From NCBI GenBank assembly GCA_024103195.1, contig JAGFIW010000081.1:8572-72571 (forward strand): a DNA stretch of 64,000 bases, given 5' to 3'. Position numbers and translations under genes: made by a program. Below are positions 28,602 through 64,000 of the stretch, one piece after another; within the stretch, counting starts at the first letter, position 1, and each line of letters begins with the position of its first letter. A model generated the notes under the pieces. That model had not been told where the DNA came from. It did not search any database and saw only the letters and a list, made by a program, of their open reading frames with translations. Source of the stretch: Saprospiraceae bacterium (GTDB lineage Bacteria > Bacteroidota > Bacteroidia > Chitinophagales > Saprospiraceae).

Positions 28602-28615
28602 CGACCCTCATGGCA

Positions 28616-45998: not shown

Positions 45999-46021
45999 CC
46001 GGGCCGGCCCCATATCCATGA

Positions 46022-46834: not shown

Positions 46835-46857
46835 ATGGCAGAGGTGAGGGTCCCGGA

Positions 46858-47298: not shown

Positions 47299-47304
47299 CG
47301 TCTT

Positions 47305-47709: not shown

Positions 47710-47778
47710 TTGGTGGGACCGGGGGGTTGGCAAGTCCGGTCATACCCATGAACGGGAATGACAACAGGAACGTGGGGA

Positions 47779-48201: not shown

Positions 48202-48353
48202 AGGAAAACGGATTGTTGTTGTTCAGGTGCAGGCATTCAACCTGAGGAGAATCAGGCCGAATAAAGGTAATTTGATTTGCAGAATTGCCTGATTCTTTTT
48301 GTCGTTTCTCGGAATGGCGGCGCCGGGAATGGCCGATACCCTGTCCGGATGGT

Positions 48354-48361
48354 TATTTTTG
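48354..48361 (+). promoter_or_regulatory. -7 box TATTTTTG upstream of the heptahaem-TPR gene
   Basis: Exact TAnnTTTG match, 4 nt before ATG 48366. Confidence 0.35.
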
Positions 48362-48365
48362 CGCT

Positions 48366-50177
48366 ATGTCCAGGTGGTCGTTGGCAGGGGTATTGTTGGC
48401 CGGTGTTTGGCTGGCCGGATCATTGATGGATTGCACACCTGTCGCCGGAGGGGGTCAAACGGATTTTCTCAACATGCACGACAGTGTGGCTTATGTGGGC
48501 ATGGCCACTTGCCGGACCTGTCACGCAAATGTGCATGAAACCTTCCGGCATACCGGGATGGGCAGATCTTTCGGGCGCGCCACACCGGAGCGCAGCAGCG
48601 CCGTTTTTGGCGATCATGCGCTGGTCAGGGATTCATTGACAGGATACAGCTATTTCCCTTTTTTTAGGGATAGTGTCTTGTACATTCGCGAATTCAGACT
48701 ACAAGGCAAAGACACGGTCCACAACCGCGTGGAAAGAGTGTCATGGATCATCGGTTCCGGGCATCACACCAACTCGCACATCATCGAGCGGAACGGTTTC
48801 CTTTACCAGGCACCGATCACTTATTACACCCAAAGCCGGAGATGGGATATGGCCCCCGGGTATGAAGGAGGCGCCAACAGCAGGTTTTCCAGGATACTGA
48901 CCACGGAATGCCTGACGTGCCACAACCATTTTCCCGGTCATGTGGCCGGATCGGAAAACAAATACTTCGACATACCGGAAGGCATCGAATGCGAGCGATG
49001 CCATGGCCCGGGCGCCTTGCATGTCAAAGCGATACAGTCCGGCAACATAGTGGATACTTCCCGGATGGCCGACCGAACGATCGTCAATCCCCGACGATTG
49101 CCCCGGGACCGGCAAACCGATCTTTGCCAGCGCTGTCATTTGCAGGGGGTGGCGGTGCTTCGCCGGGGCAAAACCTTTTTTGATTTCCGGCCCGGCATGG
49201 CCCTTTCCGAAGTCATGCATGTTTTTCTGCCCCGATACAGCGATTCGGGGGAGCGATTCCTCATGGCTTCCCAGGCAGAGCGTCTCGTGCAAAGTGCGTG
49301 TTACCGCCTATCCGAATCACTGACCTGTATCACCTGCCATAACCCACATGTTTCGGTCTTGCAGACCGGAAGGGAACAATACAATACGACTTGCAGGAAT
49401 TGTCACGGTGCCCTGAAATGTTCGGCGCCGGAGGCGGACAGAAAGGCGCGCAAGGAGGATTGTGCAGGCTGTCACATGCCCGCTTCGGAGAGCATTGACA
49501 TCCCCCACGTCAGTATTACCGATCATTATATCCGCAAGGATTACCGGCCTGTATCCGGCGATGGGGGGAAAAGCCGGTTTTTGGGGTTGGAGCCCTTGAC
49601 CAGGGGCATGGTCGGGCCGGAGGAAATGGCGCAGGCGTATATCGCGCTTTACGAGAAATTCATTCCGGACCGGTCCCTGCTCGACTCGGCCGGACAATGG
49701 CTCGACCGGGCCCGGGGAAAGGAGACGGTGATTTTTCCGGTGCGGGTTCACTGGCTGTTTGCCCGGGAGGATTACGGTGCATTGGGCCGGCTGGCCGATC
49801 AATGCGATACGTCCGGGCTGGACGGGTGGACCGCCTATCGATTGGGAGAGGCCTGCATGCGGACGATGCGCCACAAGCAGGGATTGGCGTTTCTCGCCCG
49901 AGCGGCGCACATGGCCCCTTACCATCTGGAATTCCTCGAGAAATACGGGGTGGCGCTGGGTGTCCTTCAAAAAGGTGTGGAGGCCGAGAGGGTCTTCCGC
50001 CGGGTGTTGGTAGAGGATCCGGCCCGCCCGTTGGCGCTTACCAATCTGGGATACCTCCGTGCCGTGCAGGGAGATGTCGGGCAAGCCCGGCTTTACTACC
50101 GCAAGGCACTGGAACTGGACCCCGACTTCGAGCAGGCCCGGGTAAACCTGGAGGCACTGGAGGGCCTCCGGCGATGA
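48366..50177 (+). CDS. heptahaem c-type cytochrome fused to a C-terminal TPR domain
   Basis: Seven CXXCH: CRTCH, CLTCH, CERCH, CQRCH, CITCH, CRNCH, CAGCH. TPR-like helices in the last ~170 aa (...NLGYLRAVQGDVGQARLYYRKALELDPDFEQA). Signal/anchor MSRWSLAGVLLAGVWLAGSLMDC from ATG 48366; the track start 48285 is a TTG. Confidence 0.8.
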   Translation: MSRWSLAGVLLAGVWLAGSLMDCTPVAGGGQTDFLNMHDSVAYVGMATCRTCHANVHETFRHTGMGRSFGRATPERSSAVFGDHALVRDSLTGYSYFPFFRDSVLYIREFRLQGKDTVHNRVERVSWIIGSGHHTNSHIIERNGFLYQAPITYYTQSRRWDMAPGYEGGANSRFSRILTTECLTCHNHFPGHVAGSENKYFDIPEGIECERCHGPGALHVKAIQSGNIVDTSRMADRTIVNPRRLPRDRQTDLCQRCHLQGVAVLRRGKTFFDFRPGMALSEVMHVFLPRYSDSGERFLMASQAERLVQSACYRLSESLTCITCHNPHVSVLQTGREQYNTTCRNCHGALKCSAPEADRKARKEDCAGCHMPASESIDIPHVSITDHYIRKDYRPVSGDGGKSRFLGLEPLTRGMVGPEEMAQAYIALYEKFIPDRSLLDSAGQWLDRARGKETVIFPVRVHWLFAREDYGALGRLADQCDTSGLDGWTAYRLGEACMRTMRHKQGLAFLARAAHMAPYHLEFLEKYGVALGVLQKGVEAERVFRRVLVEDPARPLALTNLGYLRAVQGDVGQARLYYRKALELDPDFEQARVNLEALEGLRR

Positions 50178-50236
50178 CGGTCGTCATTCCGCGGCTGATT
50201 CTGGTCATCCTGAAGGTATCGTTCCTTTCATCCGGC

Positions 50237-50244
50237 TAACTTTG
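50237..50244 (+). promoter_or_regulatory. -7 box TAACTTTG upstream of the six-gene cytochrome operon
   Basis: Exact TAnnTTTG match, 18 nt before ATG 50263, inside the only sizeable gap (86 nt) in the island. Confidence 0.4.
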
Positions 50245-50262
50245 CCCTTCCAAGGTTGAAGG

Positions 50263-51129
50263 ATGAGTCCCATTGTTCACCGTGTTTATATTTCGACGTT
50301 AGTCACCATTGTCGCAAGTACTGCCTGTTTTCTGGCCTATAGCGGCTACTCGTACTATACGACCCCACTTGAGGAACGGTTTTTTCATCCCCGGCACGAT
50401 TGGTTCAAGCCTTCGGGAGCATTTGGACACGGGCTGGGCATTGTCGGCACTTTGCTTATTCTTTTGGGCGTATTCGGGTATATGGGTATCAAACGCACCC
50501 GTTTGTTGTCGAAAATGGGACGTTTGAAATATTGGCTGGAATTTCATATTTTCCTTTGTACGCTTGGTCCCGTCATGGTCCTTTTTCACACCGCTTTCAA
50601 GTTTGGCGGTATCGTCTCGGTCAGTTTCTGGAGTATGGTCGCTGTGGTGGCGAGTGGTGTGATCGGAAGGTTCATTTACGTGCAAATTCCCCGGTCCCTG
50701 GAAGGCCGTGAATTTTCCTTGCAGGAGCTTCATGCCATGCGGAAGGAATTGACGGAATCTCTGCGAACCGATTACGGATTGGATGAAGAAACGGTGCGTT
50801 TCATAGAGGACATTTCCGAGCAGCCCGTGAACGGAGGTGGAAATCTGATGGTACAATTTGTCCGGAGATGGATGGCTGACCGACGCGCGATCAGGGGCGT
50901 CGTTACCCGGTTGCGTGCCAAAGGAACGGATGGTAAGATCGTAAAAGCCATTCGGCGCAATTTCCGTAAAGAGCTCACCTTGAGGAGTCGAATCAACAGA
51001 TTGCAACACATGATCCGGCTGTTCAAGTACTGGCATGTTGCCCACCTTCCCTTTGCATTGATCATGCTCATTATCATGATCATTCATGTAGGTGTCACCC
51101 TTGCTTTTGGTTATCGCTGGATATTTTGA
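50263..51129 (+). CDS. five-TM membrane protein with two H-x13-H helices (candidate dihaem cytochrome b)
   Basis: TM3 is EFH-IFLCTLGPVMVLF-HTAF and TM5 is VAH-LPFALIMLIIMII-HVG. R/K-rich ~115-aa loop between TM4 and TM5. The coding call is solid; the haem-b function is inferred. Confidence 0.65.
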   Translation: MSPIVHRVYISTLVTIVASTACFLAYSGYSYYTTPLEERFFHPRHDWFKPSGAFGHGLGIVGTLLILLGVFGYMGIKRTRLLSKMGRLKYWLEFHIFLCTLGPVMVLFHTAFKFGGIVSVSFWSMVAVVASGVIGRFIYVQIPRSLEGREFSLQELHAMRKELTESLRTDYGLDEETVRFIEDISEQPVNGGGNLMVQFVRRWMADRRAIRGVVTRLRAKGTDGKIVKAIRRNFRKELTLRSRINRLQHMIRLFKYWHVAHLPFALIMLIIMIIHVGVTLAFGYRWIF

Positions 51130-51131
51130 CC

Positions 51132-52460
51132 ATGAACCAGGAAGAATTTTTGATTTATGCGATTGTCCTGGGATTTTGCTTCCTGGTCATTTGGCTTTAT
51201 TTGCGTCACACCCGACGCAGGTCGCAGGAGACCGAAGTGAAAATTGAACAAGCCAAGTTGGAAGGACTTCATGAACCGGTCTCTCTCCATCCGGTGATTG
51301 ACCTCAATACCTGTATTGGCAGTGCGGCATGTGTGGCCGCTTGTCCGGAGCAGGATATATTGGGATTGCTCAAGGGCAAAGCCCACCTGGTACATGCCTC
51401 CAATTGTGTTGGTCATGGTGCCTGTTTTCACAGTTGTCCCGTAGAGGCGATTTCTCTGGTTATCGGCACTGAAAAACGCGGTGTGGATTTGCCACATGTC
51501 AACCAGGATTACGAGACCAATGTCCAGGGTATTTTCATTGCCGGTGAGTTGGGGGGAATGGGATTGATCAAAAACAGTGTTGAACAGGGACAATCGGCGG
51601 TGGAAAGTATGGTTCGAAACGGATTTCCAGCGGGAGACAAAGAGTACGATCTTATTGTCGTGGGAGCCGGTCCGGCCGGCATTTCGGCCACTTTGACGGC
51701 GCGCAAACACAAATTGCGGTGTCTCACTTTGGAGCAGGATTCTTTGGGAGGTACCGTATTCACTTTTCCAAGGTCAAAAATTGTCATGACGGCTCCCATG
51801 GATCTACCCCTTCATGGCAAGGTGAAATTGTACGACACAAGCAAGCAGGAATTGCTGGAATTATGGCAAGCCGTTCTGCACAAAAACGGCATTTCCATCC
51901 GGGAACATGCCAAAGTGGAGGACATTACCATGGTCGCCGGGGGATTTGAAGTAAGGACATTGCAGGGTGACTGTTTTACCACCAAGAAGGTGTTGTTGGC
52001 CATCGGTCGAAGAGGGAGTCCCAGGAAGTTGGGCATACCGGGCGAGGATACCGAAAAAGTGGCCTACCGATTGCTCGAACCGGAAAACATTCATGACAAA
52101 AATGTGCTGGTGGTTGGGGGGGGAGATTCGGCCATTGAAGCGGCTTTGCTTTTGGCAGAAAACAATGCGGTGACCCTTTCATACCGGAAAGACACCTTCA
52201 GTCGTCTGAAACCCAAAAATCGGGACAAGATCCTGGAGGCGCAGCAACAAGGGGTTGTAGATGTCCAGTTGATGACCAATCCTCTGCGTATCGAAAAACA
52301 CGAAGTGATTCTGAACAAGGAGCCGGAAAATGCGGAGTTTCGGATACCCAATGACCTGGTTTACATTTTCGCCGGAGGGGAGTTGCCCACCCAATTTTTG
52401 GAAAAAACAGGAATACGTATCACCAAGCGATTTGGTTATACAGTACGGAGTTTCTCATGA
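51132..52460 (+). CDS. membrane-anchored 2x[4Fe-4S] ferredoxin-domain / FAD-NAD(P)H oxidoreductase
   Basis: N-terminal TM helix then RHTRRRSQE. CIGSAACVAACP and CVGHGACFHSCP cluster motifs. Dinucleotide folds DLIVVGAGPAGISA and VLVVGGGDSAIEAALLLAE about 158 aa apart (thioredoxin-reductase-like). ATG 51132 is 2 nt after the upstream stop. Confidence 0.8.
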   Translation: MNQEEFLIYAIVLGFCFLVIWLYLRHTRRRSQETEVKIEQAKLEGLHEPVSLHPVIDLNTCIGSAACVAACPEQDILGLLKGKAHLVHASNCVGHGACFHSCPVEAISLVIGTEKRGVDLPHVNQDYETNVQGIFIAGELGGMGLIKNSVEQGQSAVESMVRNGFPAGDKEYDLIVVGAGPAGISATLTARKHKLRCLTLEQDSLGGTVFTFPRSKIVMTAPMDLPLHGKVKLYDTSKQELLELWQAVLHKNGISIREHAKVEDITMVAGGFEVRTLQGDCFTTKKVLLAIGRRGSPRKLGIPGEDTEKVAYRLLEPENIHDKNVLVVGGGDSAIEAALLLAENNAVTLSYRKDTFSRLKPKNRDKILEAQQQGVVDVQLMTNPLRIEKHEVILNKEPENAEFRIPNDLVYIFAGGELPTQFLEKTGIRITKRFGYTVRSFS

Positions 52461-54385
52461 GGAATTTCCAAGTAGCGACGCAATCCTTCCATCCGGATAC
52501 ATTTTCCGGGTGTTGGCAAGCCGTCAGGAATGCTGCAACGGGTCTTGTAGGACAGTCCGGTAAAAGGAAATTTCTGACCGGGAAATTCATCTGCCTGTTA
52601 GTCCTTGGTTTCATCCGGACGGGATGGTCGCAATTGTCTCCCGGACCATTGGCGCAGGCCCATGCTCATCTGGAAGGCGTCAGAAATTGCACCCAATGTC
52701 ACGTCCTTGGCGAAAAGGTTTCCAATGACAAATGCCTGGCTTGTCACAAGGAAATCCGCCAGCTGCTCGGACAGCAGAGGGGATATCATGCCAGCCCGGG
52801 TGTAAAGGGCAAGGAGTGTGCATCTTGCCACAGTGACCATCACGGGCGAAATTTTACGCTCATCCGGTTCGAGGAAAAAACCTTTGATCACAAGTTGGCG
52901 GGATACCCGCTTACGGGGGCACATGCCCGTATTGATTGCCGTTCTTGTCACAAGGCCGATTTCATCAAGGATGCCGAACTGAAGAAGGATCGGGATACTT
53001 ACCTGGGCCTTGACAATGCATGTCTTGGTTGTCATGCCGATTACCATCGCCAGACGCTTTCGTCAGATTGTGCGAAATGTCATGGTACCGAAAGCTTTGT
53101 CCCTGCTTCATTATTCAATCATGACCGTACTGAATTTCCCCTCAAGGGGAAGCACCGAACAACTGCCTGTGTTGACTGCCATCCCAAAGAGACGCGTGAC
53201 GGTCAACCCTTTCAAAAGTTTACCGGATTGGCATTCGGAAAATGCACGGATTGTCATTCGGAGGTCCACCAGAGTATCCATGTGAAGGATTGCAGGGATT
53301 GCCACACGGAGCAATCCTTTTCCGCCATTCCTGTGGCTACCACCCGGTTCAATCACAAGGAAACCGGATTCCCGCTTCGCGGCCGGCATCAGAAGCTGGA
53401 ATGTGCCGCTTGTCACGACACCGGCCTGCCCCCGTCCGAAGTGCTCCGTGACAGGAAGGGCATAAAGGCGGATCAATGCGTTGTCTGCCATGAGGATCCA
53501 CACGAAGGTCGTTTTGGATCATCCTGTGCCTCGTGCCATTCGGAATCGTCCTTCCATGACGTGGCCATCTCGCTGGATTTTGATCATGACCAAACGGATT
53601 TTCCCCTTTTGGGGCGGCATCGGGCGGTGGATTGCCGGCTTTGTCATGAGGATGGTTTTACCACTCCTTTGGCCCATGAATCCTGCCATTCATGTCATGA
53701 GGATTACCACAAAGGCGAATTTGAGCGAGAAGGCCAAGGACCGGATTGCCGGGAATGCCATACAGTTGAAGGATTCCAGGGTAGTTTGTTTACCATTGAG
53801 CGACATGCCGGCACCAATTTTCCGCTGGAGGGCGCCCATCAGGCGACCCCTTGTTTTTCCTGCCATATGAAGGAAGAGAGGTGGACATTCAGAAATCTTG
53901 ACGTTCGTTGTGTGGGTTGTCATGAAGACGTCCACAAGGATCAGATTCCTGCCCGGTATTACCCTGGAAAAACTTGTGAATCCTGTCACCGGCCTACTTC
54001 CTGGGGGGACAACCACTTTGACCACAACCAGACCCAATTCCCGCTCCAGGGCGCCCATGGCAGGCAGCCGTGCCGGGAATGCCATGTGCCGGATACTGGA
54101 TTCCCGTATGGGAAGTTCGTATCTTTGGGGCGTGCCTGTGTCACCTGTCACGAGGACGAGCATCGCGGTCAGTTTCTATCGGGTGAAGTCGTCGATTGTG
54201 TCCGTTGCCATGGATATGACTCCTGGAAAATAGCTTTTTTTGACCATGACCGCACCGCGTTCCCCCTGGAAGGTCGACACAAAGAGGTGTCCTGTGATGG
54301 ATGCCATGTCGAGGTGGAAAAGGAGGGCGACCGATTCGTGTGGTACAAAATAGAGCGTTTCGCGTGCGCCGATTGCCACAAATAG
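52457..54385 (+). CDS. 23-haem c-type cytochrome built from c7/c3-like trihaem repeats
   Basis: 23 CXXCH counted in 642 aa. Recurrent linker F-D/N-H-x2-T-x-F-P-L-x-G-x-H occurs seven times. Signal peptide KFICLLVLGFIRTGWSQ. ATGA overlap with the upstream gene. Confidence 0.9.
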   Translation: MRNFQVATQSFHPDTFSGCWQAVRNAATGLVGQSGKRKFLTGKFICLLVLGFIRTGWSQLSPGPLAQAHAHLEGVRNCTQCHVLGEKVSNDKCLACHKEIRQLLGQQRGYHASPGVKGKECASCHSDHHGRNFTLIRFEEKTFDHKLAGYPLTGAHARIDCRSCHKADFIKDAELKKDRDTYLGLDNACLGCHADYHRQTLSSDCAKCHGTESFVPASLFNHDRTEFPLKGKHRTTACVDCHPKETRDGQPFQKFTGLAFGKCTDCHSEVHQSIHVKDCRDCHTEQSFSAIPVATTRFNHKETGFPLRGRHQKLECAACHDTGLPPSEVLRDRKGIKADQCVVCHEDPHEGRFGSSCASCHSESSFHDVAISLDFDHDQTDFPLLGRHRAVDCRLCHEDGFTTPLAHESCHSCHEDYHKGEFEREGQGPDCRECHTVEGFQGSLFTIERHAGTNFPLEGAHQATPCFSCHMKEERWTFRNLDVRCVGCHEDVHKDQIPARYYPGKTCESCHRPTSWGDNHFDHNQTQFPLQGAHGRQPCRECHVPDTGFPYGKFVSLGRACVTCHEDEHRGQFLSGEVVDCVRCHGYDSWKIAFFDHDRTAFPLEGRHKEVSCDGCHVEVEKEGDRFVWYKIERFACADCHK

Positions 54386-57300
54386 CGTTCTGCCTCGCCC
54401 TGGTCACCTCACTGGGCGCCCAGTCTCCGCATGGTCCGGCCTTTGCCTTGCAATGTGCCGACTGTCATACAACCGATGGTTGGAAGACCATGCGGAAAGA
54501 CATGGTGTTCGACCATGCCACCACGAATTTCCAACTGGAAGGAAGGCATCGCACGGTAGATTGCAGGGCGTGTCATTCCACTCTTGTGTTCGGGGAGGCT
54601 GAGACGGATTGCGTTTCCTGCCATACAGATGTCCATCAGCAAACCGTTGGACAGGACTGTGCGCGTTGTCATCATACGGAAAACTGGTTGGTGGATGACA
54701 TTTCAGGCATCCATCAGGACAATGGATTCCCGTTGGTTGGCGCACATGCCGCTGCCCAGTGTTTTGATTGCCACGTTTCGGAAAGCGACCTGCGATTTGA
54801 TCGTTTGGGGAACGATTGTATTTCCTGCCATCGGGAAGATTACCAGGGTACGACAAATCCCAACCACCAGGAAGCGGGATTTTCCCTCCAATGTGCCGAT
54901 TGTCATGATCCGGTTCGGTTTGGTTGGGAATCAGGGCCTGTTGAACATGATTTTTTCCCGCTCACCAAGGGGCATGACATCGCGGATTGCGGGCAGTGCC
55001 ACACAGGTGGGGATTTTACCCAGACGCCGACGGATTGCGCCGCCTGTCACCAGGCCGACTTTGATGCCACTTCCCAACCCAGTCATACGATGGCAGGCTT
55101 CCCTACCGACTGTCGCATGTGTCACACGACAGATCCCGGCTGGATGCCTGCCGAATTTCGGGATCACGACGGATTGTATTTCCCCGTTTATTCGGGAGCG
55201 CATGAAGGAACCTGGTCCTCTTGCACGGAATGCCATCAGAACCAGGGGGATTTCGGTGAATTCACCTGCCTGACCTGTCACCAGCCGCAGGAAACGGACG
55301 ATGAACACCAGGGAATTGGCGGCTACATCTATCAAAGCCAGGCTTGTCTGGCATGTCACCCCACCGGCAATGCGGATGACATCTTTGATCACAATGCGAC
55401 CGCATTCCCGTTGACCGGAGCCCATGTGGATGTGGATTGCGCGGCCTGTCACGGCGGAGGATTCCAGGGCACACCTACAGAATGTGCCGCCTGCCATATG
55501 CCAGCTTTTGATCAGACCAACAATCCTGATCACGGAGATCTCGGCTTTCCTGCGGATTGCGCGGCCTGTCATACCACGGCGCCGGATTGGACACCTGCCG
55601 GCATGCCGGACCATGACGCCTATTATGCGCTGAATGGAGCACACGCGCTTATTCGGGATGATTGCTCCTCTTGTCATCATGGGGATTACAACAATACCCC
55701 CAATACCTGCTGGGGTTGTCACCAGAATGATTTCCAGAACACCCTTGATCCTGATCATGAGGCCCTCAACTTTTCAACGGATTGCATTACCTGCCATACG
55801 GAATCAGCATGGTCGCCAACCGCCTTCGATCATGACGGACAGTTTTTTCCGATTTACAGTGGCCAACACGAAGGTGAATGGATGTCCTGCACCGATTGCC
55901 ACAACAATCCTTCCCAATATGCCGATTTCACTTGTCTGACCTGCCATCTCAATCCCGAAACGGATGACCAGCATCAGGGCATTTTGGGTTATGTCTACGC
56001 GAGTACGGCTTGTTTGGCTTGCCATCCGACGGGCAGTGCCGACGATGTCTTTGATCACAACCAAACCGGTTTTTCCCTGACGGGTGCTCATTTGACCACT
56101 GATTGCCTGGAATGTCATGCCGGAGGATTCAGCGGCACCCCAACGGCATGCAATGCCTGCCATTCGGAGGATTTCAACCAGGCGGGAAATCCCAATCATG
56201 TGGCGTTAGGTTTGCCGATGGATTGCGCCTCCTGTCACAGTACGGAGCCCGGATGGAGTCCCGCCCAGTTTCCGGACCACGACAATTATTATGCGTTGGT
56301 TGGTGCCCATGCGATGATCGCTATGGATTGCGCCGCCTGTCATAACGGGGATTACCAGAATACACCCAATACCTGTGCGGGTTGCCACCAGAAGGATTAC
56401 GACCAAACGAATGATCCCAACCATGCAAGTCTCCAGTTCAGTACTGACTGCGCCTCCTGTCATAATGAATCCGCCTGGGAGCCATCCTCTTTTGATCATG
56501 ACGGACAGTATTTCCCCATTAACAGTGGTGCGCATGCCGGTGAATGGACGACTTGTACGGATTGTCACATGAATCCTGGGGATTGGGCTGATTTTACTTG
56601 TCTGACATGCCATCTCAATCCCGAGACCGAGGATCAACATCAGGGTGTCCAGGGCTTTGTCTATGTCAGCACAGCCTGTCTGGCTTGTCACCCCACGGGT
56701 AGCGCGGATGACATTTTCGATCATGACCAGACCGGGTTTGCGCTGACCGGCGCTCACCAGCAGGCAGATTGTCTGGATTGTCATGCGGGAGGCTTTGCGG
56801 GAACGCCAACGGCATGCAGTGCCTGCCATTTGGAAGATTTCAACCAAGCGGTCAATCCCAACCATATGACCTTGGGTTTGCCTATGGATTGTGCTTCCTG
56901 TCACAGTACGGAGCCAGGATGGAGCCCTGCCCAGTTTCCGGACCACGACAGCTATTACCCGTTGTTGGGCGCCCATGCGATGATCGCCATGGATTGCGCC
57001 GCCTGTCACAACGGGGATTACCAGAATACACCCAATACTTGTGCGGGTTGCCATCTGGAAGATTTTCAGCAAACCACGGATCCGGATCATGAAGCTGCCC
57101 AATTCAATACCGACTGTGCTTCATGCCACTCTGAAAATGCCTGGAGCCCAGCCCAGTTTGACCATGACGGGCAGTATTTCCCCATCTACAGCGGCAAGCA
57201 TGAAGGGGAGTGGAGCCAGTGTACGGATTGCCATACGGATCCCGGGAATTACGCCACTTTCAGTTGCACAGGGTGTCATGTCAATCCGGAAACGGATGAC

Positions 57301-58944
57301 CATCATGCCGGAATACCGGGGTATTCATACAGCAGTCCTTCCTGTCTGGCCTGCCATCCGACGGGCAGTGCCGACGACCCTTTTGACCACAGCCAAACCA
57401 ATTTTCCGCTAACAGGTGCCCACGTATCCGTTTCCTGCATCGAATGCCATGCAGGAGGCTACCAGGGAACACCCATGAATTGTGATGCCTGCCATCTCGG
57501 AGATTTCAACCAGGCCAGCAATCCCAATCACCTGACCCTGGGCCTTTCGACCGATTGTATGACTTGTCACACCACCGATCCAGGCTGGAGTCCGGCTTCA
57601 TTTCCTGTTCACAATGATTTTTGGGTCATCGACGGGGCTCATATCCCCGTAGCGAACGAATGTGCACTGTGCCATAACGGGGATTACAACAATACCCCCA
57701 ATACCTGTTCGGGATGTCATTTGCCGGATTACAATCAATCCGTCAATCCGGACCATGGTGCATTGGGATTTCCTACCGATTGTGCCACCTGTCATACGAC
57801 AGATCCGGGTTGGAGTCCTGCAGAATTTCCCCAGCATAATGATTATTGGGTCATTGATGGGGCCCATGTTCCCATTGCCCAGGACTGCGCCGCATGTCAT
57901 AATGGTGACTATCAAAACACACCCAATACCTGTGCGGGTTGTCACCAGGAAGACTACAACCAGAGTCTGAATCCCAACCACATCTCTTTGGGGTTGCCCA
58001 TGGATTGTGCCCAATGTCACACCACGGCACCCGACTGGATGCCGGCCACCTTCCCCTTGCATGATGCCTATTGGCCGATTACAGGGGCGCATACCGCCAT
58101 TGCCAATGACTGTGCAGCATGCCACGGGGGTGATTACAACAACACACCCAACACTTGTTATGGGTGTCATACCGAGGATTACAATCAAACGTCAAATCCG
58201 GACCATCAGGCGGCACAATTCCCCACCGATTGCACCCAATGTCACAATCAGGATGCCTGGACACCTGCCACTCTTGATCACAACCTGTTTTGGCCTTTGA
58301 CGGGGGCTCATGCGGCCATTGCCAACGATTGCAATGCCTGTCACAATGGCAATTACAACAATACCCCCAATGCTTGTTCCGCATGTCATACCGATGATTA
58401 CAACCAGAGTGCAAATCCAAGTCATGCTTCGTTGGGCTTGCCAATGGATTGTGCGATGTGCCATACCACGGATCCGGATTGGATGCCGGCCACTTTCCCC
58501 ATTCATGATGATTTCTGGCCTTTGACGGGGGCTCATGCGGCCATTGCCAATGAGTGTTCGACCTGTCACAACGGCAATTACAACAATACGCCCAATACGT
58601 GCTACGGTTGTCACATGGCCGATTACAATGGGACCAACAATCCGGACCATGCTGCGGCAGGATTTCCGACGACTTGCGAAAATTGCCATACTACCTCGGC
58701 CTGGACTCCTTCCAATTGGGATCATGACAGCCAATATTTCCCCATTTACAGCGGGAAGCATGATGGAGAATGGAATCAATGTACGGACTGCCACACCGTG
58801 CCGGGCAATTACGCGATTTTCAGTTGTATCGATTGTCACCAGCATGACGACCCTGCTGAAGTTGGTGATGACCATCAGGGGGTACCGGGATATTCCTACA
58901 ATAGCCAGGCCTGTTATGATTGTCACCCGACGGGTGAAGATTAA
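54364..58944 (+). CDS. 61-haem modular giant c-type cytochrome
   Basis: 61 CXXCH counted by hand. A GTG 54364 start gives a canonical signal peptide (M)RRLPQIAFCLALVTSLGAQS with 22-nt overlap of the upstream gene. The alternative ATG 54301 would overlap by 85 nt. Ends CYDCHPTGED. Confidence 0.9.
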   Translation: MRRLPQIAFCLALVTSLGAQSPHGPAFALQCADCHTTDGWKTMRKDMVFDHATTNFQLEGRHRTVDCRACHSTLVFGEAETDCVSCHTDVHQQTVGQDCARCHHTENWLVDDISGIHQDNGFPLVGAHAAAQCFDCHVSESDLRFDRLGNDCISCHREDYQGTTNPNHQEAGFSLQCADCHDPVRFGWESGPVEHDFFPLTKGHDIADCGQCHTGGDFTQTPTDCAACHQADFDATSQPSHTMAGFPTDCRMCHTTDPGWMPAEFRDHDGLYFPVYSGAHEGTWSSCTECHQNQGDFGEFTCLTCHQPQETDDEHQGIGGYIYQSQACLACHPTGNADDIFDHNATAFPLTGAHVDVDCAACHGGGFQGTPTECAACHMPAFDQTNNPDHGDLGFPADCAACHTTAPDWTPAGMPDHDAYYALNGAHALIRDDCSSCHHGDYNNTPNTCWGCHQNDFQNTLDPDHEALNFSTDCITCHTESAWSPTAFDHDGQFFPIYSGQHEGEWMSCTDCHNNPSQYADFTCLTCHLNPETDDQHQGILGYVYASTACLACHPTGSADDVFDHNQTGFSLTGAHLTTDCLECHAGGFSGTPTACNACHSEDFNQAGNPNHVALGLPMDCASCHSTEPGWSPAQFPDHDNYYALVGAHAMIAMDCAACHNGDYQNTPNTCAGCHQKDYDQTNDPNHASLQFSTDCASCHNESAWEPSSFDHDGQYFPINSGAHAGEWTTCTDCHMNPGDWADFTCLTCHLNPETEDQHQGVQGFVYVSTACLACHPTGSADDIFDHDQTGFALTGAHQQADCLDCHAGGFAGTPTACSACHLEDFNQAVNPNHMTLGLPMDCASCHSTEPGWSPAQFPDHDSYYPLLGAHAMIAMDCAACHNGDYQNTPNTCAGCHLEDFQQTTDPDHEAAQFNTDCASCHSENAWSPAQFDHDGQYFPIYSGKHEGEWSQCTDCHTDPGNYATFSCTGCHVNPETDDHHAGIPGYSYSSPSCLACHPTGSADDPFDHSQTNFPLTGAHVSVSCIECHAGGYQGTPMNCDACHLGDFNQASNPNHLTLGLSTDCMTCHTTDPGWSPASFPVHNDFWVIDGAHIPVANECALCHNGDYNNTPNTCSGCHLPDYNQSVNPDHGALGFPTDCATCHTTDPGWSPAEFPQHNDYWVIDGAHVPIAQDCAACHNGDYQNTPNTCAGCHQEDYNQSLNPNHISLGLPMDCAQCHTTAPDWMPATFPLHDAYWPITGAHTAIANDCAACHGGDYNNTPNTCYGCHTEDYNQTSNPDHQAAQFPTDCTQCHNQDAWTPATLDHNLFWPLTGAHAAIANDCNACHNGNYNNTPNACSACHTDDYNQSANPSHASLGLPMDCAMCHTTDPDWMPATFPIHDDFWPLTGAHAAIANECSTCHNGNYNNTPNTCYGCHMADYNGTNNPDHAAAGFPTTCENCHTTSAWTPSNWDHDSQYFPIYSGKHDGEWNQCTDCHTVPGNYAIFSCIDCHQHDDPAEVGDDHQGVPGYSYNSQACYDCHPTGED
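54889..57552 (+). repeat. four tandem 666-bp (222-codon, nine-haem) units inside the 61-haem gene
   Basis: Equivalent positions fall at 54889, 55555, 56221, 56887 and 57553, in exact 666-bp register. Units 3 and 4 are about 90% identical over their first ~170 nt by manual alignment. Confidence 0.85.
57553..58671 (+). repeat. five tandem trihaem units (225/225/225/219/225 bp) inside the 61-haem gene
   Basis: GAT-TGx (Asp-Cys) unit starts at 57553, 57778, 58003, 58228 and 58447. Consensus DCxxCHTTDPxWxPAxFPxHDxxWxxxGAHxxIAxxCxxCHNGxYxNTPNTCxGCHxxDYNQxxNPxHxxxGxP. Confidence 0.85.
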
Positions 58945-58947
58945 TTG

Positions 58948-60585
58948 ATGCCGGTCATGCGATGGAAACTCATAGTGTTGATTCAACTCACGGTAATTGC
59001 AGTGAGTGCGCAGGAACCGGCATCATTCCTGGAAGGGTCAGTATCCTTTTTAACGGCTCAAAATGTTTATGTCAAATTTGACAACACGAGTGCCATTGAG
59101 ATAGGGGACACGCTTTATCTGAAACGCCCGGATTCATGGGAGCCCCTCCTGACGGTTTCCCAAAAATCCTCGATTTCCTGCGTGTGTATTCCGTTGGGGC
59201 CCATGCCCGTGAAAGGGACTTTGGTGTTTGCCATCACCTGGAAGGATGCCCAATCGGAGAAAGTCGTGCCATTGCCGGAACAGCAGCCTGTTGCCCCCCC
59301 ACTTCCTCCTGATGCTCCACTACAAATACCTGAAGATTCAGAAGAGGCTCCTCCTTCAGACAATTCAGAAAAGACAGCGACGAGACAACGAATTATGGGA
59401 AGATTCTCTGCGGCTTCTTACAGTACATTGACGAAGGGATCGAACCAGCATAGAATGCGTTATTCTCTGAACTGGAAAGGGGAAAATCTTGGCGGAAGCC
59501 CTTTTTCTGTGGAGGGCTATCTGACATTTCGCCACACGGCAGGTGAGTGGGAGGAGGTTCGCGAAAATCTGTTTGATGTATTCAAAATCATTTCGCTGGC
59601 GGTCCGATATGATCCGACAGTGCGGACATCCATTTCTGTGGGTCGCCGGATAAATGCCCGTATTTCAAGTATGGGTGCCATAGACGGTATTCAGGTTGAG
59701 CATGGATGGGGGAAGGTGCGCATTGGTGTCATGGCGGGTTCCCGGCCTGATTTTATGGATTATAGCATCAATCCGGCGTTGCTGCAAGGCGGAGCCTGGA
59801 TCGGATTCGACCTGGGATCCTCCTGGGCGAGATTTCAAAATACTGCTGCCATTGTAGAACAACGAAATGGTCCGCGGACCGATCGGCGGTTCCTGTATTT
59901 CCAACACTCGGGCACCTGGTTTACCCATCTTCATCTCTTCTTGTCTTCCGAAGTGGATTTATACAGGAAAGTGGGTCAGGAAGTCGGTTCCACTTTGTCA
60001 TTTACCAATTTGTTTGCCTCCCTGCGTTATCGGTTCTCCAGACAGTTGAGTGCGTCTGTTTCCTATGACAATCGGAAGAATGTCATTTTCTTTGAATCCT
60101 ACAAGAATTTTATTGACCAGTTGATTGAACAGGAATCAAGACAAGGCCTCAGATTTCAGATGCAATACAAGCCATGGCGACTTGTTTCGATAGGTGCCAA
60201 TGCGAGTTGGAGGTTTCAAGCCAGTGGGGCCAATCCTTCCCGCAATTTGAATGGTTATGTGACCGTGGCCCGGATTCCCTGGATTTCCGGCAGCATGACC
60301 GTTTCCGGCAATATGCTCAACACCGGTTATTTGCAGAGCAACATGTACAGTGTACGTTACATGAGGGAAATCGTACGTGGCCATGTAAGTGCAGATGCCT
60401 ATTACCGGTGGATCGATTACACCTATCCTTCGGATTTCCGACTCCATAATGATCTGGCCGGTATCAATGTCACCTGCAGGCTGACTCGCTTGCTGGCAAT
60501 TCATTTGTATTACGAAGCCACCTTCGGAAGTGAAAATACGAACATTTCACGTTTGAATGCCAAAATTACGCATCGGCTCCAGTGA
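58948..60585 (+). CDS. predicted outer-membrane beta-barrel protein (candidate porin partner of the cytochromes)
   Basis: Signal peptide MRWKLIVLIQLTVIAVSAQ. Roughly 90-aa N-terminal domain, then Pro-rich linker PLPEQQPVAPPLPPDAPLQIPEDSEEAPP. About 20 short amphipathic alternating segments follow (RMRYSLNWK, FSVEGYLTFRH, LSASVSYDNR, GLRFQMQYKP, VSIGANASWRFQ, LAIHLYYEATFG...). TTG 58945 directly follows the upstream stop; the ATG is at 58948. Confidence 0.6.
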   Translation: MPVMRWKLIVLIQLTVIAVSAQEPASFLEGSVSFLTAQNVYVKFDNTSAIEIGDTLYLKRPDSWEPLLTVSQKSSISCVCIPLGPMPVKGTLVFAITWKDAQSEKVVPLPEQQPVAPPLPPDAPLQIPEDSEEAPPSDNSEKTATRQRIMGRFSAASYSTLTKGSNQHRMRYSLNWKGENLGGSPFSVEGYLTFRHTAGEWEEVRENLFDVFKIISLAVRYDPTVRTSISVGRRINARISSMGAIDGIQVEHGWGKVRIGVMAGSRPDFMDYSINPALLQGGAWIGFDLGSSWARFQNTAAIVEQRNGPRTDRRFLYFQHSGTWFTHLHLFLSSEVDLYRKVGQEVGSTLSFTNLFASLRYRFSRQLSASVSYDNRKNVIFFESYKNFIDQLIEQESRQGLRFQMQYKPWRLVSIGANASWRFQASGANPSRNLNGYVTVARIPWISGSMTVSGNMLNTGYLQSNMYSVRYMREIVRGHVSADAYYRWIDYTYPSDFRLHNDLAGINVTCRLTRLLAIHLYYEATFGSENTNISRLNAKITHRLQ

Positions 60586-60647
60586 TTATGGCAGGCGATG
60601 TGTCCGTTTACTTATTGAGTCTTTCTACCTTTACCTGAAAATCCAGA

Positions 60648-61385
60648 ATGATGAAATCGCATTTGTTTGTGTTGGGCATTGTTGGCATACTATTGCTCCA
60701 AGGATATGGCTGTGACTCCGGACCTAAAGTGATTGAAAGTGACTCTGAACAGGCTGGAGAGCCTCAAATACGGATGGAGCAAGAAGACCCTATTCGGGAA
60801 GTAATGGTCGAAGAGGTGCTTCATACCGACAAGTATTCCTATCTGAATGTCAAGGAAGGGGACAAGGAGACCTATTGGATTGCGATTCCCAGAAGTGAAG
60901 TTGAAGTGGGTGATGCCCTGAGATACAAGGGAGGATTGATGAAGCAAAATTTTTACAGCCGTGAATATGACCGGACATTTGAAACGTTGTACCTGGTTTC
61001 CGACATCAGAAGAGCCAGCGCTTCGCCAGGTGAGCTTCAGGCAGGAAATAATCCGGAAGATGTCATCAAAGTCGAACCCGGTTCCATTCAGCCTGCAGAA
61101 GGGGCTATCCGCATAGCTGATTTACTGGCTGCACCTTCCAGGTATGCGAATAAAACGGTAAGGGTTACGGGAAAGGTGGTCAAAGTCAATCCCATGATAA
61201 TGAGTCGCAATTGGGTCCATTTGCAGGACGGCAGTGGAAAAGATCTGGATTTGACATTCACGACCACTGATCTTGTGACATTGGGATCAGTGGTGACACT
61301 GGAAGGCAAGGTGGCCCTTGATAAAGACTTCGGAGCCGGTTACAGGTATGATGTCATCGTTGAAGACTGTCGCCTGATTCCCTGA
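60648..61385 (+). CDS. hypothetical lipoprotein with OB-fold-like C-terminal half
   Basis: MMKSHLFVLGIVGILLLQGYGC lipobox. C-terminal KTVRVTGKVVKVNPMIMSRNWVHLQDGSG...VTLEGKV resembles periplasmic BOF/YgiW-type OB folds (weak, by eye). Confidence 0.5.
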   Translation: MMKSHLFVLGIVGILLLQGYGCDSGPKVIESDSEQAGEPQIRMEQEDPIREVMVEEVLHTDKYSYLNVKEGDKETYWIAIPRSEVEVGDALRYKGGLMKQNFYSREYDRTFETLYLVSDIRRASASPGELQAGNNPEDVIKVEPGSIQPAEGAIRIADLLAAPSRYANKTVRVTGKVVKVNPMIMSRNWVHLQDGSGKDLDLTFTTTDLVTLGSVVTLEGKVALDKDFGAGYRYDVIVEDCRLIP

Positions 61386-61600
61386 TTCCAAATTATGCAG
61401 CGTCCCCATTGTTCCATTCCTGAGCGATTGCTGCGCAAGCCGTTCAATTCAGGCTCTGTCTGTATGCCTTCCCGACCAGATAGACGAGCGTGACGATGTG
61501 CACCCATGTTTTCCTGGTAGAAATGCATGCCCACTCAAATTGTGGGAAAGGTTAAAGCGACTTTCCAAACCCCGTATTGAAGCGGGTTAAGAAATCCTCG

Positions 61601-61638
61601 GGATTCGGATACTGATGTAAGCACCTTCGTCCGAATCC
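61601..61638. terminator. 9-bp inverted repeat in the convergent gap between the lipoprotein gene and ccsBA
   Basis: GGATTCGGA (61601-61609) and TCCGAATCC (61630-61638) with a 20-nt loop and no T run. Confidence 0.25.
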
Positions 61639-61680
61639 ATAGATAAATCCTGGATATTTCGTGTCCGAAGTGTGTTTAAG

Positions 61681-64000
61681 TCACGCCAATTTTTCATTTT
61701 TTCTGTGTTTCCACCATGCGAGCAAGCTGATGACAACCAGAGAAAATACGGTATAATAAGCAAAATCGGGAATCGGTACAGGATCACCTGCGGCATAGGA
61801 ATGGAGTCCGGACAGATAATAGTTGACGCCGAAATAGGTCATGACAACGGAAGCCCACCCGAAAAGTGACGCGACGTTGAAGGCGTACAAACCGCGGAAA
61901 CGGGGGATAAACCGCATGTGCAAAATGAAACTGTATACGAGAATGGTGACAAGCGCCCAGGTTTCTTTGGCATCCCAACCCCAATAACGTCCCCATGGTT
62001 CATTGGCCCATATACCTCCGAGATAAGTACCGGTACTTATCATGAACAACCCTCCGATCAGAGTCATTTCACTGATGTAGGACATTTCCTTCACCATACG
62101 ATAAATGCGTTGACGGTTGGAAGGACCGGCAAGAGCCATGAGTACGAGATTGATGACCCCAATAATGGCCCCCAGCATGAGGAAGCCATAACTGCCAGCT
62201 TCCAGCGAAACATGTATCGTCAGCCAATATGATTTCAATACGGGAACCAGTGGGGTGATTTCCGGATCCAGCCAGCTCAGACCGGCCACCATCATGATGG
62301 TAGCTGCCAGCGCAGAGGTTGCCGTCAAGGCGCCGGCTGCACGTCGTGAAAACAGTAATCCGGCCAATACCGTGGTCCATCCGATATAAATCATGGACTC
62401 ATAACCATTGCTCCAGGGTGCTCTTTGACTTACGTACCAACGAATGGCCAATCCAAAGGTGTGCAAGGTAAAAGCCAGTAAAAGAATTCCCCATGTAATT
62501 TTTATTATTTTTTCGAGAGGTTTGTCTGGTTGGAAGACCGACAAAAAGAGCAAGATCAGGAAAGCAAGCGTCAAAAGGCCGTATATGGTGCGAAGGCGGT
62601 TGAAAATGTCCAGTCGGTTGAGGAGCAATTCTGCAGAAATCCGGCTTGTAGCAGGATAAATGGATGATCCGTATTCCCGTTGGTAATTCCCGAGATCTTG
62701 CAGGAGGCGATCCGGCTTTTCCCATTGATCATTTTTGCGGGACGTACGCAAAGCGTCAAGGTAGGCCGGATAGAATTGATCAATGAATGGCACTCCGGAG
62801 GCGCCATGACGGGTTGCATCGGCGGGAGAACGCCAGTGATTGGTGGTATCACCCGGAACGGGAAAAATACGAAACAAATTTCCCGAAAAAACCATGCTGC
62901 AAATGTTCACTTTTTCATCCACCTTGATCAATTCCTTGTCCAGGACGCCGCGGTCACGAGATTCCTTGTTGTAAGCCGTTCGGACGGCATCGGACAGTTT
63001 GTACGCGCCGTCGGTGTGAAAAAAGTCGGCATAGGAGGCATTGGGTGCATCCACGCCCAGCATTTTACGGATCTCCGGGTGCTTCCCCAAGCGGATCAAC
63101 GGGGCATGGTACCATTCTGATGGCTGAAGGGCCATTCCGAGAATCACTTGTTCGGCCGACAGATTTTCATAGGTTTCTTTGCGCGACAATTTGCGCATGA
63201 CCTCCCTCGAAAGGGTATTGATCGGCTTGAGTCTTCCATTAAAGTCCTGTACGACATTTTTTCCGAAGTTATCCGCGTGTCTCCTGGACACAGGAACGGG
63301 TTCTCCTTGTTGGGCGGCCAGGAAACCGTTAAACGCGCACGCCAATACAAGGGTGGCCACACCGGCTTTTGAACCCGAGCGAATTCTTTTCAGGAGGACC
63401 GCCAATTGCCGGAACCGACTGGATGGCGTAAAGAGGGTTATGATCATGCCCAATGTGAGAAGAAAATATCCGATATATGACAACCATGTACCCGGTGCGT
63501 CATGATTGACGCTGAGATAAGTGCCCCCTTCATCCTGGTCATAAGATGATTGAAAGAATCGGTAACCTTCATAATCCAGGATATGGTTCATATAAATCCG
63601 CTGTTCACGCTCCAATCCCGTACGGGGATCCTTTAGGGTGACTTCACTGGCATAGGAGGAAGGATTCTGTGTACCCGGATAGCGTTCAAGAATGAAATCA
63701 CGCAAGTACAGCGAAAAAGGAAGGAATCGTTTTTTAGCGCCATAGGAGGCCTGGACGCGCACACCCGGCAATTCGAATGTGCGTGGCCGACCTTCTACGC
63801 CGGGTGCTCCATAGATATAGTGCTTTACCGTACGACCTCCAGAGGATATGGCCAATTCAACGCCTCCCACGCTTGTACTGGTCATCTTGCGATCTGCCGA
63901 TTCCATTTCTACGCGACCTTTTTCCATGAAGTCGGCAAAGACAAAACTGGCTGCGTTGTTTTGATACAGACTGCGTAGGGCCAAAGGATGGTCCATATCC
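61681..64000 (-). CDS. ccsA: system II cytochrome c biogenesis protein, fused ResB/CcsB-CcsA (CcsBA), 5'-partial
   Basis: C-terminal CcsA WWD motif WANEPWGRYWGWDAKETWALV with flanking conserved His (TLHTFGLAIRW, FILHMRF). ResB-like N-terminal part. The frame stays open to the window edge, so Met 63996 is probably internal. Confidence 0.85.
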   Translation of the reverse strand, partial: DMDHPLALRSLYQNNAASFVFADFMEKGRVEMESADRKMTSTSVGGVELAISSGGRTVKHYIYGAPGVEGRPRTFELPGVRVQASYGAKKRFLPFSLYLRDFILERYPGTQNPSSYASEVTLKDPRTGLEREQRIYMNHILDYEGYRFFQSSYDQDEGGTYLSVNHDAPGTWLSYIGYFLLTLGMIITLFTPSSRFRQLAVLLKRIRSGSKAGVATLVLACAFNGFLAAQQGEPVPVSRRHADNFGKNVVQDFNGRLKPINTLSREVMRKLSRKETYENLSAEQVILGMALQPSEWYHAPLIRLGKHPEIRKMLGVDAPNASYADFFHTDGAYKLSDAVRTAYNKESRDRGVLDKELIKVDEKVNICSMVFSGNLFRIFPVPGDTTNHWRSPADATRHGASGVPFIDQFYPAYLDALRTSRKNDQWEKPDRLLQDLGNYQREYGSSIYPATSRISAELLLNRLDIFNRLRTIYGLLTLAFLILLFLSVFQPDKPLEKIIKITWGILLLAFTLHTFGLAIRWYVSQRAPWSNGYESMIYIGWTTVLAGLLFSRRAAGALTATSALAATIMMVAGLSWLDPEITPLVPVLKSYWLTIHVSLEAGSYGFLMLGAIIGVINLVLMALAGPSNRQRIYRMVKEMSYISEMTLIGGLFMISTGTYLGGIWANEPWGRYWGWDAKETWALVTILVYSFILHMRFIPRFRGLYAFNVASLFGWASVVMTYFGVNYYLSGLHSYAAGDPVPIPDFAYYTVFSLVVISLLAWWKHRKNEKLA

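Follow-up and report, generated by a model that had tools for sequence, protein, structure and literature searches.

A modular 61-haem c-type cytochrome of variable length in a conserved gene cluster of Saprospiraceae: a candidate member of an envelope-crossing electron conduit

What a single polypeptide carrying 61 haem-binding motifs might do in the cell envelope is the question raised by a gene of a Saprospiraceae bacterium (assembly GCA_024103195.1, contig JAGFIW010000081.1). The gene lies in a stretch of 64,000 nucleotides (positions 8,572 to 72,571 of the contig), referred to here as the window, and occupies an intact open reading frame (ORF) on the + strand (54301/54364–58944); translation from the GTG at position 54364 gives a protein of 1,526 amino acids. 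Considered together with its conserved neighbors, we read this protein as a single-polypeptide wire of 61 c-type haems and as the variable-length member of an envelope-crossing, NAD(P)H-fed, outward conduit that resembles the porin–cytochrome systems, and we give this reading about an even chance of being correct. The original prediction, made from the sequence of the window, had counted 61 CXXCH motifs in about 1,526 codons and had described a Sec-type signal peptide with neither a lipobox nor a C-terminal domain of the type IX secretion system (T9SS), and all of these points were borne out. A scripted recount returned exactly 61 CXXCH motifs and no CX3-4CH motif in the 1,526 amino acids, corresponding to approximately 25 amino acids per haem, and far fewer than one CXXCH would be expected by chance at this length. 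The N-terminus read from the GTG, MRRLPQIAFCLALVTSLGA followed by QSPHG, agrees with the orthologue consensus MxRLxxI...AQSPHG, and Q[SN]PHG follows the hydrophobic segment in 92 of the 103 family members. Gln at position +1 agrees with the "Q-rule" of signal peptidase I in the Bacteroidota.

The protein contains 126 His, 65 of which lie outside the motifs, and 123 Cys, of which 122 belong to the motifs and one to the signal peptide, leaving the mature protein with no free Cys. No lipobox is present in the 61-haem protein, in which the sole non-motif Cys (C10) lies within the hydrophobic core and the cleavage context is A before Q-S/N-PHG. Neither Pfam nor NCBIfam matched a T9SS sorting domain (type A, TIGR04183; type B, CHU_C) at the C-terminus, and there is no room for one, the last CXXCH being followed by just five residues (PTGED). 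Export by the T9SS or as a lipoprotein was therefore rejected, there being no such domain and no lipobox. The 61 motifs, the Sec signal, and an adjoining CcsBA gene together point to a multihaem cytochrome of the c type.

A repetitive ORF of this length might be an assembly chimera or a non-functional remnant, as the original prediction had itself considered, and the orthologue is indeed split into overlapping ORFs in four loci from long-read metagenome-assembled genomes (MAGs; L004, L016, L027, and L071). For the gene in the window, this explanation is hardly credible. The nonahaem blocks are only 57–80% identical to one another in amino acids and 60–78% in nucleotides, with a longest exact DNA repeat of 35 bp. 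A contig from an independently assembled sister strain (L082; GCA_046128175.1), 96% identical to the window in nucleotides over 17 kb, carries a colinear 61-haem gene without a single indel, and the two copies differ by 24 synonymous and 2 nonsynonymous codons. Furthermore, all CXXCH motifs and ligand His residues are retained across the aligned family proteins, and orthologues are found intact on complete multi-megabase contigs as well as in a cultured isolate. An artefact was rejected on the divergence of the repeats and the colinearity with L082: the gene is real and under selection, and the split ORFs are probably assembly frameshift errors rather than pseudogenes.

The protein is built from repeated modules, and the periods given in the original prediction proved exact in the scripted parse. 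Haems 7, 16, 25, 34, and 43 are located at residues 177, 399, 621, 843, and 1065, a step of exactly 222 amino acids, and are followed by trihaem steps of 75, 75, 75, 73, and 75 amino acids (1065, 1140, 1215, 1290, 1363, and 1438) and then by the final four haems. The predicted submodule DHDG-x-Y/F-FP...SG-x-H...CT-D/E-CH was also located in five copies, in units 1, 4, 7, 10, and 17. Although the modularity and its periods stood, the register that had been proposed (two c7-like units, four nonahaem units, five trihaem units, and a terminal tetrahaem unit) was not supported by the spacing observed across the family, which gives a 10-haem head, four B-C-A blocks, four A units, and a terminal B unit (10 + 36 + 12 + 3 = 61). 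The same head spacing (Table 1) is found in family members that carry anything from 13 to 103 haems. The B units have a motif spacing of 35/37-15-26 and the sequence DHDGQYFPIYSGxH..., the C units a spacing of 31-15-25 and FDHxxTxFPLTGAH..., and the A units a spacing of 33/35-15-25 and FxxHxxYYxLxGAH...NGDYNNTPNTC.... The consensus of 1,199 A units is tt.p.W.PatF..Hn.yy.l.GAHa.iandCa.CHnG.YnnTPntC.GCH..dyn.ttnPnH.a..fptdC..CH, and the tandem units of the window protein are 71–79 amino acids each. The grammar of the family can be written as a 10-haem head, (B-C-A+)n, runs of A, and a terminal B with the spacing 35-15-29, and 91 of the 103 family proteins end five or six residues past the last CXXCH.

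This grammar emerged from the homologue search and comparison of module copy number that the original prediction had proposed as a check. A protein search identified 1,902 relatives at E ≤ 1e-10, the best 120 of which were 1,262–2,648 amino acids in length with 51–108 CXXCH motifs; where the source organism was given for these 120, it was a Saprospiraceae, Lewinellaceae, or Saprospirales MAG. The haem number followed 3n + 1 (13 + 3k) in 84 of 86 complete database matches and in 57 of 58 complete proteins encoded at loci from species-representative genomes, that is, in 98%. The haem count of family members starts at 13 and reaches at least 103 (108 in one truncated sequence), with a bimodal distribution of 13–37 and 58–103, and the smallest consist of the head plus B (13 haems) or the head plus BCA plus B (22 haems). 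Because the orthologues extend from 13 to at least 103 haems, the 61 haems of the window protein are mid-range and not exceptional in the family. As judged from these sequences, length is an evolving variable, whereas neither the head nor the terminal cap changes. Elsewhere, counts of 87 (Desulfuromonadia) and 112 (Paludibaculum) CXXCH motifs are given in passages of two earlier papers (PMC11492766, PMC11495043).

The distribution of non-motif His residues suggests how the haems are ligated. When residues 1–557 were aligned with those of 49 orthologues, all 22 CXXCH motifs were invariant or nearly so, as were exactly 22 non-motif His residues. In a set of 2,227 trihaem units drawn from 103 family proteins, exactly three non-motif His columns were present in every unit type, each conserved at 96–100%, whereas the best Met column reached no more than 17% and none was conserved. 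The one distal His per haem described in the original prediction was thus recovered on both scales. Three conserved His per unit with no conserved Met fit bis-His ligation throughout, and every haem is probably bis-His ligated; the pattern is the strongest support for this that can be obtained short of spectroscopy.

In terms of known folds, the 61-haem protein is assigned by its profile matches to the c7/c3 superfamily. Pfam Cytochrome_C7 (PF14522) matched at 187.1 bits (cut-off 24.8; 4e-56), Cytochrom_c3_2 at 2e-37, PF14537 at 128.1 bits (cut-off 25), and PF02085 at 117.5 bits (cut-off 22.9). The model for GSU1996-type proteins (TIGR04257) reached only 19.5 bits against a cut-off of 40 (E = 8.4e-4), so that the term "c7-like" used in the original prediction holds at the level of the superfamily but not for the GSU1996 type. 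A sequence search of solved structures with the whole protein returned a single match, the hexahaem fragment of GSU1996 (3oue, E = 3.5e-5), to which a family-profile search added only weak matches to the tetrahaem domain of FccA (E = 0.005). The c7 polymers of Geobacter (GSU1996 and GSU0592 with 12 haems, GSU2210 with 27; PDB 3OV0/3OUE) share with the window protein the tandem trihaem units of approximately 71–79 amino acids, the density of about 25 amino acids per haem, and the Cytochrome_C7 domain. In GSU1996, the 12 haems are arranged as a linear wire, for which roles as a nanowire or as a capacitor have been discussed, and one haem per domain is His–Met ligated (PMC10138318), whereas the units described here have three conserved distal His residues and no conserved Met. 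The family also differs from the Geobacter polymers in having three types of unit, a 10-haem head, and a cap, five to eight times more haems, almost no Lys or Arg, an adjoining gene for an outer-membrane barrel, an aerobic Bacteroidota host, and a failed match to TIGR04257. With HmcA (16 haems, 1H29) and the nine-haem cytochrome of sulfate reducers, the protein shares concatenated c3-type modules and bis-His haems; however, HmcA has a compact shape and is part of another membrane complex, and the matches to it were non-significant (NCBIfam HmcA, 27.5 bits against 400; structural match, E = 0.75).

The amino acid composition of the protein is strongly biased. It contains 6 Lys and 14 Arg (20 of 1,526 residues) against 196 Asp and Glu, giving a net charge of -176 and an isoelectric point (pI) of 4.6, and nearly all of its Lys and Arg lie inside the 10-haem head. 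Lys and Arg together account for about 1% of residues in long orthologues, about 4% in short orthologues, and 11% in the 23-haem cytochrome of the same operon. This depletion may reflect adaptation to surroundings in which the protein is exposed and extended and in which proteases or cations abound; it is consistent with a polyanionic chain that is exposed and extended and withstands trypsin-like proteases. The predicted barrel encoded directly downstream is basic (pI 9.4), in contrast to the 61-haem cytochrome.

The evidence that this cytochrome belongs to a larger system comes from its gene neighborhood. Among 80 loci from species-representative genomes, and also in an 8-Mb genome, we found a conserved gene order in which a membrane protein (MEMB), an iron–sulfur flavoprotein (FER4FAD), a 23-haem cytochrome (MHC642), sometimes a 13-haem protein, the variable cytochrome, a predicted beta-barrel (BARREL), a lipoprotein (LIPO), and CcsBA, a system II cytochrome c biogenesis protein, follow one another. 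The genes thus form a seven-gene cluster conserved, as far as sequence comparison goes, in the Saprospiraceae, Lewinellaceae, and their relatives. In the window, the operon genes overlap or abut one another (Table 1). BARREL is encoded in at least 476 species-representative genomes, which are mostly Saprospiraceae, Lewinellaceae, and Phaeodactylibacter, with a few Cytophagales-type MAGs, and the loci include that of a cultured isolate, Phaeodactylibacter xiamenensis KD52, with an 82-haem version of 2,042 amino acids. Many genomes encode two head-type paralogues, one with 13 or 22 haems and a long one; the 13-haem member is often placed between MHC642 and the long member, whereas in L039 (8227–9918, 11690–16069) and L069 a 22-haem member precedes BARREL and the long member follows it, and in L074 (8185–14511) the long cytochrome follows LIPO. 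The 23-haem partner is steady in size while the head-type protein varies eightfold.

Table 1. Positions, in the window, of the parts of the 61-haem cytochrome and of the genes clustered with it
Feature	Position	Strand	Description
MEMB	50263..51129	+	288 amino acids, five predicted helices, first gene of the operon
FER4FAD	51126..52460	+	4-nt overlap with neighbors; two [4Fe-4S] plus TrxR-like FAD/NAD(P)H oxidoreductase
MHC642	52457..54385	+	23 CXXCH; Pfam Cytochrome_C7, c3_2
Signal peptide of the 61-haem protein	amino acids 1-19, 54364..54420	+	cleavage predicted between A and QSPHG
Conserved 10-haem head, haems 1-10	54421..55125	+	spacing 36-16-16-34-19-25-32-16-25
Four B-C-A nonahaem blocks, haems 11-46	55126..57795	+	224, 222, 222, 222 amino acids
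Four A-type trihaem units (13-16), haems 47-58	57796..58689	+	75/75/73/75 amino acids
Terminal B-type trihaem cap, haems 59-61, PTGED, stop	58690..58944	+	spacing 35-15-29, usual for the end unit of the family
BARREL	58945..60585	+	N-terminal beta domain, amino acids 26-99; Pro-rich linker, 103-143; barrel of about 22 strands, 149-545
LIPO	60648..61385	+	lipobox Cys22, then PKVIES; weak matches to GW/SH3-like and OB-like domains; haem-free
CcsBA (system II cytochrome c biogenesis)	61681..63999 (window end)	-	Pfam Cytochrom_C_asm and ResB; NCBIfam CcsB

MEMB has the features of an inner-membrane protein that binds two b-type haems. The His pairs H95/H109 and H261/H275, each 14 residues apart within one helix, are invariant in 18 and in 10 orthologues, with H6, H42, H45, and H258 also invariant and H56 nearly so, and the protein therefore shows the four conserved transmembrane His in two pairs that are characteristic of DUF4405-like dihaem b proteins. 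Pfam DUF4405 matched nine of ten MEMB orthologues weakly (best E = 8.9e-6), alongside weak matches to DUF4079 and Ni_hydr_CYTB, and a search of solved structures returned nothing significant for MEMB. Purified DUF4405 proteins proved to contain haem b, and a role in carrying electrons across the membrane has been proposed for them (PMC11334425); MEMB is probably a DUF4405-like carrier of this kind. FER4FAD combines Fer4_10/Fer4_21 domains (amino acids 55–110) with Pyr_redox_3/Pyr_redox_2 domains (amino acids 174–440), and its nearest solved structures are YpdA/Bdr (7a76 and 7a7b) and TrxR-like ferredoxin-NADP reductases (3ab1, 2zbw, and 5twb); its sequence contains no CxxC redox disulfide. Because its N-terminal transmembrane helix is followed by RHTRRR, the positive-inside rule places the bulk of the protein in the cytoplasm, where it may serve as the electron input module.

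The pairing of these two proteins recalls the NADPH oxidases (NOX) and ferric reductases, in which an NAD(P)H flavoprotein is likewise combined with a two-b-haem transmembrane domain with His pairs 14 residues apart, and raises the idea that the outward path ends in one-electron reduction of O2 outside the cell. The superoxide or peroxide so generated could serve in algicidal or predatory attack, in the oxidation of Mn or organic matter, or in iron acquisition. Haems with bis-His ligation throughout are typically of low potential and autoxidisable. The hosts are mainly aerobic (PMC9304909). However, we consider such an oxidant generator improbable: nothing in the sequences points to O2 as the acceptor, a wholly conjectural role, dozens of haems would be superfluous for its reduction, and the conserved cluster contains no genes related to reactive oxygen species. 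MEMB shares its two transmembrane His pairs with the DUF4405/MsrQ/PepSY-like and NOX/ferric-reductase carriers, and its pairing with a cytoplasmic NAD(P)H flavoprotein is analogous to that of NOX. It differs from the DUF4405- and NOX-type carriers in scoring below the profile threshold, in having five predicted helices instead of six, and in having a multihaem c chain as its putative acceptor. It is also paired with a Fer4 plus TrxR-like FNR, where those carriers work with a flavinylated protein or a NOX dehydrogenase domain.

The remaining members of the cluster are MHC642, BARREL, LIPO, and CcsBA. MHC642 has 20–25 haems, usually 23, in nearly all loci, shows no amino acid changes between the window and L082, and is probably a periplasmic bridge. 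In nearly all loci, the gene for BARREL is the next one after that for the variable cytochrome. Its AlphaFold2 model (mean predicted local distance difference test [pLDDT] 84.5) contains 22 long strands and a disordered linker but no plug, which implies that something must fill the pore. Neither the window protein nor 50 orthologues matched any Pfam family, and NCBIfam gave no match to BARREL. Foldseek retrieved only generic large barrels at template modeling (TM) scores of 0.3–0.45, namely the FimD/PapC usher pore, OprD/Occ, TonB-dependent receptors, AlgE, and MtrB. The top matches were FimD and PapC, at low TM scores, and we do not claim kinship with ushers. By analogy, the N-terminal domain on its tether of about 40 residues could be a periplasmic docking or plug element, recalling the N-terminal and plug domains of ushers. 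LIPO, with invariant Cys22 and PKVIES, follows BARREL in most loci and showed weak Pfam matches to GW (12 of 12 members, best 2.4e-6) and to Slp/OB-fold, with no relative found among solved structures. The CcsBA gene adjoins the cluster in most loci, on either strand; in the window, its ORF has no stop by base 63999, and 771 amino acids are visible compared with about 1,020 in orthologues.

Considered together, these parts can be arranged into a path. Electrons from cytoplasmic NAD(P)H would enter the FAD of FER4FAD, a membrane-anchored FNR-like flavoprotein, and pass to its two [4Fe-4S] clusters, would then be handed across the inner membrane by the pair of b-haems in MEMB, and would traverse the periplasm along MHC642, whose size is constant. 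At the outer membrane, the plug-less BARREL of about 22 strands, together with LIPO, would house or pass a cytochrome, and the 61-haem protein would conduct, and incidentally store, electrons at or beyond the outer membrane, with Fe(III)/Mn(IV) minerals, humics, O2, or a partner cell as examples of the final acceptor. We infer the direction of flow, the order of carriers, the donor, the acceptor, the cytochrome that fills BARREL, and the site of the 61-haem chain. Like the porin–cytochrome conduits (MtrCAB of Shewanella, PDB 6R2Q; Pcc/OmaB-OmbB-OmcB of Geobacter; MtoAB/PioAB), the cluster has multihaem genes adjoining a large barrel gene (approximately 80 loci), a plug-less barrel, and a cytochrome c maturation gene close by. 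Unlike them, its barrel, of about 22 strands, comes with a linker and an N-terminal domain and has no recognisable homology to MtrB; its lipoprotein is haem-free, with no lipoprotein cytochrome; MEMB and FER4FAD take the place of a quinol dehydrogenase of the CymA/ImcH/CbcL type, which is absent from the conserved cluster; and the cytochrome varies between species from 13 to 103 haems.

Conduits of the porin–cytochrome type are reversible in principle, and the combination of an outer-membrane barrel and multihaem proteins is common to iron oxidisers. The wire might therefore gather electrons from extracellular Fe(II), reduced humics, cathodes, or partner cells, as MtoAB and PioAB do. We regard inward uptake as very improbable, since the cluster provides an NAD(P)H/FeS flavoprotein as the partner at the inner membrane, and not a link to the quinone pool or an oxidase, the reduction of NAD(P)+ by Fe(II) or humics would be uphill with no energy input for it encoded in the cluster, and no cytochrome oxidase or bc1-type genes occur in the conserved cluster.

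Several results weigh against the outward conduit that we favor. Only domain content points to NAD(P)H as the donor and to an outward flow. MEMB of the window scored 14.4 bits against PF14358, below the threshold of 26.7, and homology of BARREL to MtrB, PioB, or OmbB was not found, MtrB (6r2q_B) ranking 32nd with a TM score of 0.34. The head (amino acids 30–292) reached 40.7 bits with the DmsE/MtrA decahaem model TIGR03508, for which the cut-off is 192.2, and MtrA was not retrieved in the family-profile search of solved structures; an MtrA-like head was dropped for these two reasons. The AlphaFold2 model of apo residues 1–557, the span of the minimal 22-haem orthologue (49 homologues), was of moderate quality (pLDDT 69.7, predicted TM score 0.35), and a Foldseek search of the PDB with it returned nothing significant, its only row being HmcA, so that linearity of the haem chain is not demonstrated. 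Saprospiraceae are regarded as mainly aerobic heterotrophs in which anaerobic respiration of oxidised nitrogen compounds is thought to be uncommon (PMC9304909). Moreover, the location of the protein would be periplasmic by default, because it lacks a lipobox and a T9SS domain, while two T9SS cargo proteins encoded in the window carry CHU_C.

The last point leads to the main competing explanation, in which the giant cytochrome is a periplasmic capacitor that stores 61 to more than 100 electrons per molecule and buffers switches between oxic and anoxic conditions in flocs and sediments. The Sec signal, accompanied by neither a lipobox nor a T9SS C-terminal domain, is in keeping with this role, as is the free variation in haem number (13–103), which would be expected if capacity and not a fixed distance were selected. 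The same role has been proposed for the periplasmic GSU1996 (PMC10138318), and "capacitor-like" functions are suggested for Saprospiraceae proteins in passages of PMC11495043. On the other hand, a plug-less BARREL and a lipoprotein, needless for a purely periplasmic store, are strictly co-conserved beside the gene, and the scarcity of Lys and Arg and the charge of -176 are unlike the 23-haem cytochrome of the same operon. A 27-haem Geobacter wire has already been predicted to exceed the width of the periplasm (PMC11492766), and by analogy it is a reasonable inference that the 61-haem chain is longer than the periplasm; a chain of 60–100 haems, if linear, would be too long to span it, although it could lie parallel to the membranes. 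Overall, we consider the capacitor somewhat unlikely.

A more ambitious version of the outward conduit places the Lys/Arg-poor chain outside the cell, threaded through BARREL, as a continuous single-polypeptide nanowire of tens of nanometers fed with NAD(P)H via FER4FAD and MEMB and bypassing the quinone pool. Although we judge this version unlikely, it would, if true, be a third nanowire design beside pili and the polymerised OmcS/E/Z filaments; hundreds of Bacteroidota species, mainly aerobic, would have it, and the length of the nanowire would be tuned by the gain and loss of trihaem modules.

Giant cytochromes of Saprospiraceae have been glimpsed before. In mSystems in 2024 (PMC11495043), uncharacterised Saprospiraceae MAGs were reported to account for the majority of the most CXXCH-rich proteins of Danish wastewater plants, and the relevant passages call these giant secreted multihaem proteins undescribed and speculate on a role in extracellular electron transfer or as capacitors. 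They are almost certainly of the same family as the 61-haem protein. The passages of that paper on these proteins give motif counts only; we found in them neither a module grammar nor a His analysis, and nothing on a composition bias, an operon, or membrane partners. The searchable literature yielded no further description of the family and none of its 13 + 3k grammar, its Lys/Arg depletion, its universal bis-His pattern, or the operon. The conserved operon and the scarcity of Lys and Arg are also new relative to the original prediction.

Extracellular electron transfer is known almost wholly from anaerobic Proteobacteria and Desulfobacterota, whereas the conduit proposed here, with unfamiliar parts at both membranes, would belong to a large clade of abundant, mostly aerobic Bacteroidota that dominate wastewater flocs, marine particles, and algal surfaces. 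If its input is NAD(P)H and not quinol, it would represent a new logic for feeding multihaem conduits. The steps of three haems, from 13 to more than 100, constitute a natural experiment on how the length of a haem wire relates to function, and the composition bias and strict bis-His pattern make the units attractive as building blocks for bioelectronics. With an intact 82-haem version, P. xiamenensis KD52 would allow localisation, acceptor, and direction of flow to be tested in culture.

Several features of the surrounding DNA can be added. The sequence TAACTTTG at 50237–50244, located 19 nt upstream of the MEMB start, matches TAnnTTTG, the -7 promoter consensus of the Bacteroidetes, and may be the operon promoter. 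Directly upstream, at 48285–50177 (+), lies a gene for a 7-haem cytochrome with C-terminal TPR repeats and weak matches to GSU2203 and c554-type proteins; this cytochrome was rejected as a part of the system, as it is not in the conserved cluster at other loci, though it is present in L082. The divergence between the window (44491–61651) and L082 is a mosaic, in which FER4FAD, MHC642, and the 61-haem gene are 99.3–99.6% identical in nucleotides with few synonymous changes, whereas the upstream TPR cytochrome, MEMB, and LIPO are only 93–94% identical, suggesting that recent recombination or a sweep of the central operon, and not constraint alone, lies behind the pattern. The gene at 46022–46834 (+), a few kilobases upstream of the cytochrome genes, encodes a CHAD-domain protein. 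The two T9SS cargo proteins with CHU_C are encoded at 28616–33823 (-) and 34016–35755 (-), one of them having 1,735 amino acids with SprB and PKD repeats, and the four + strand ORFs over 28610–33772 are probably spurious.

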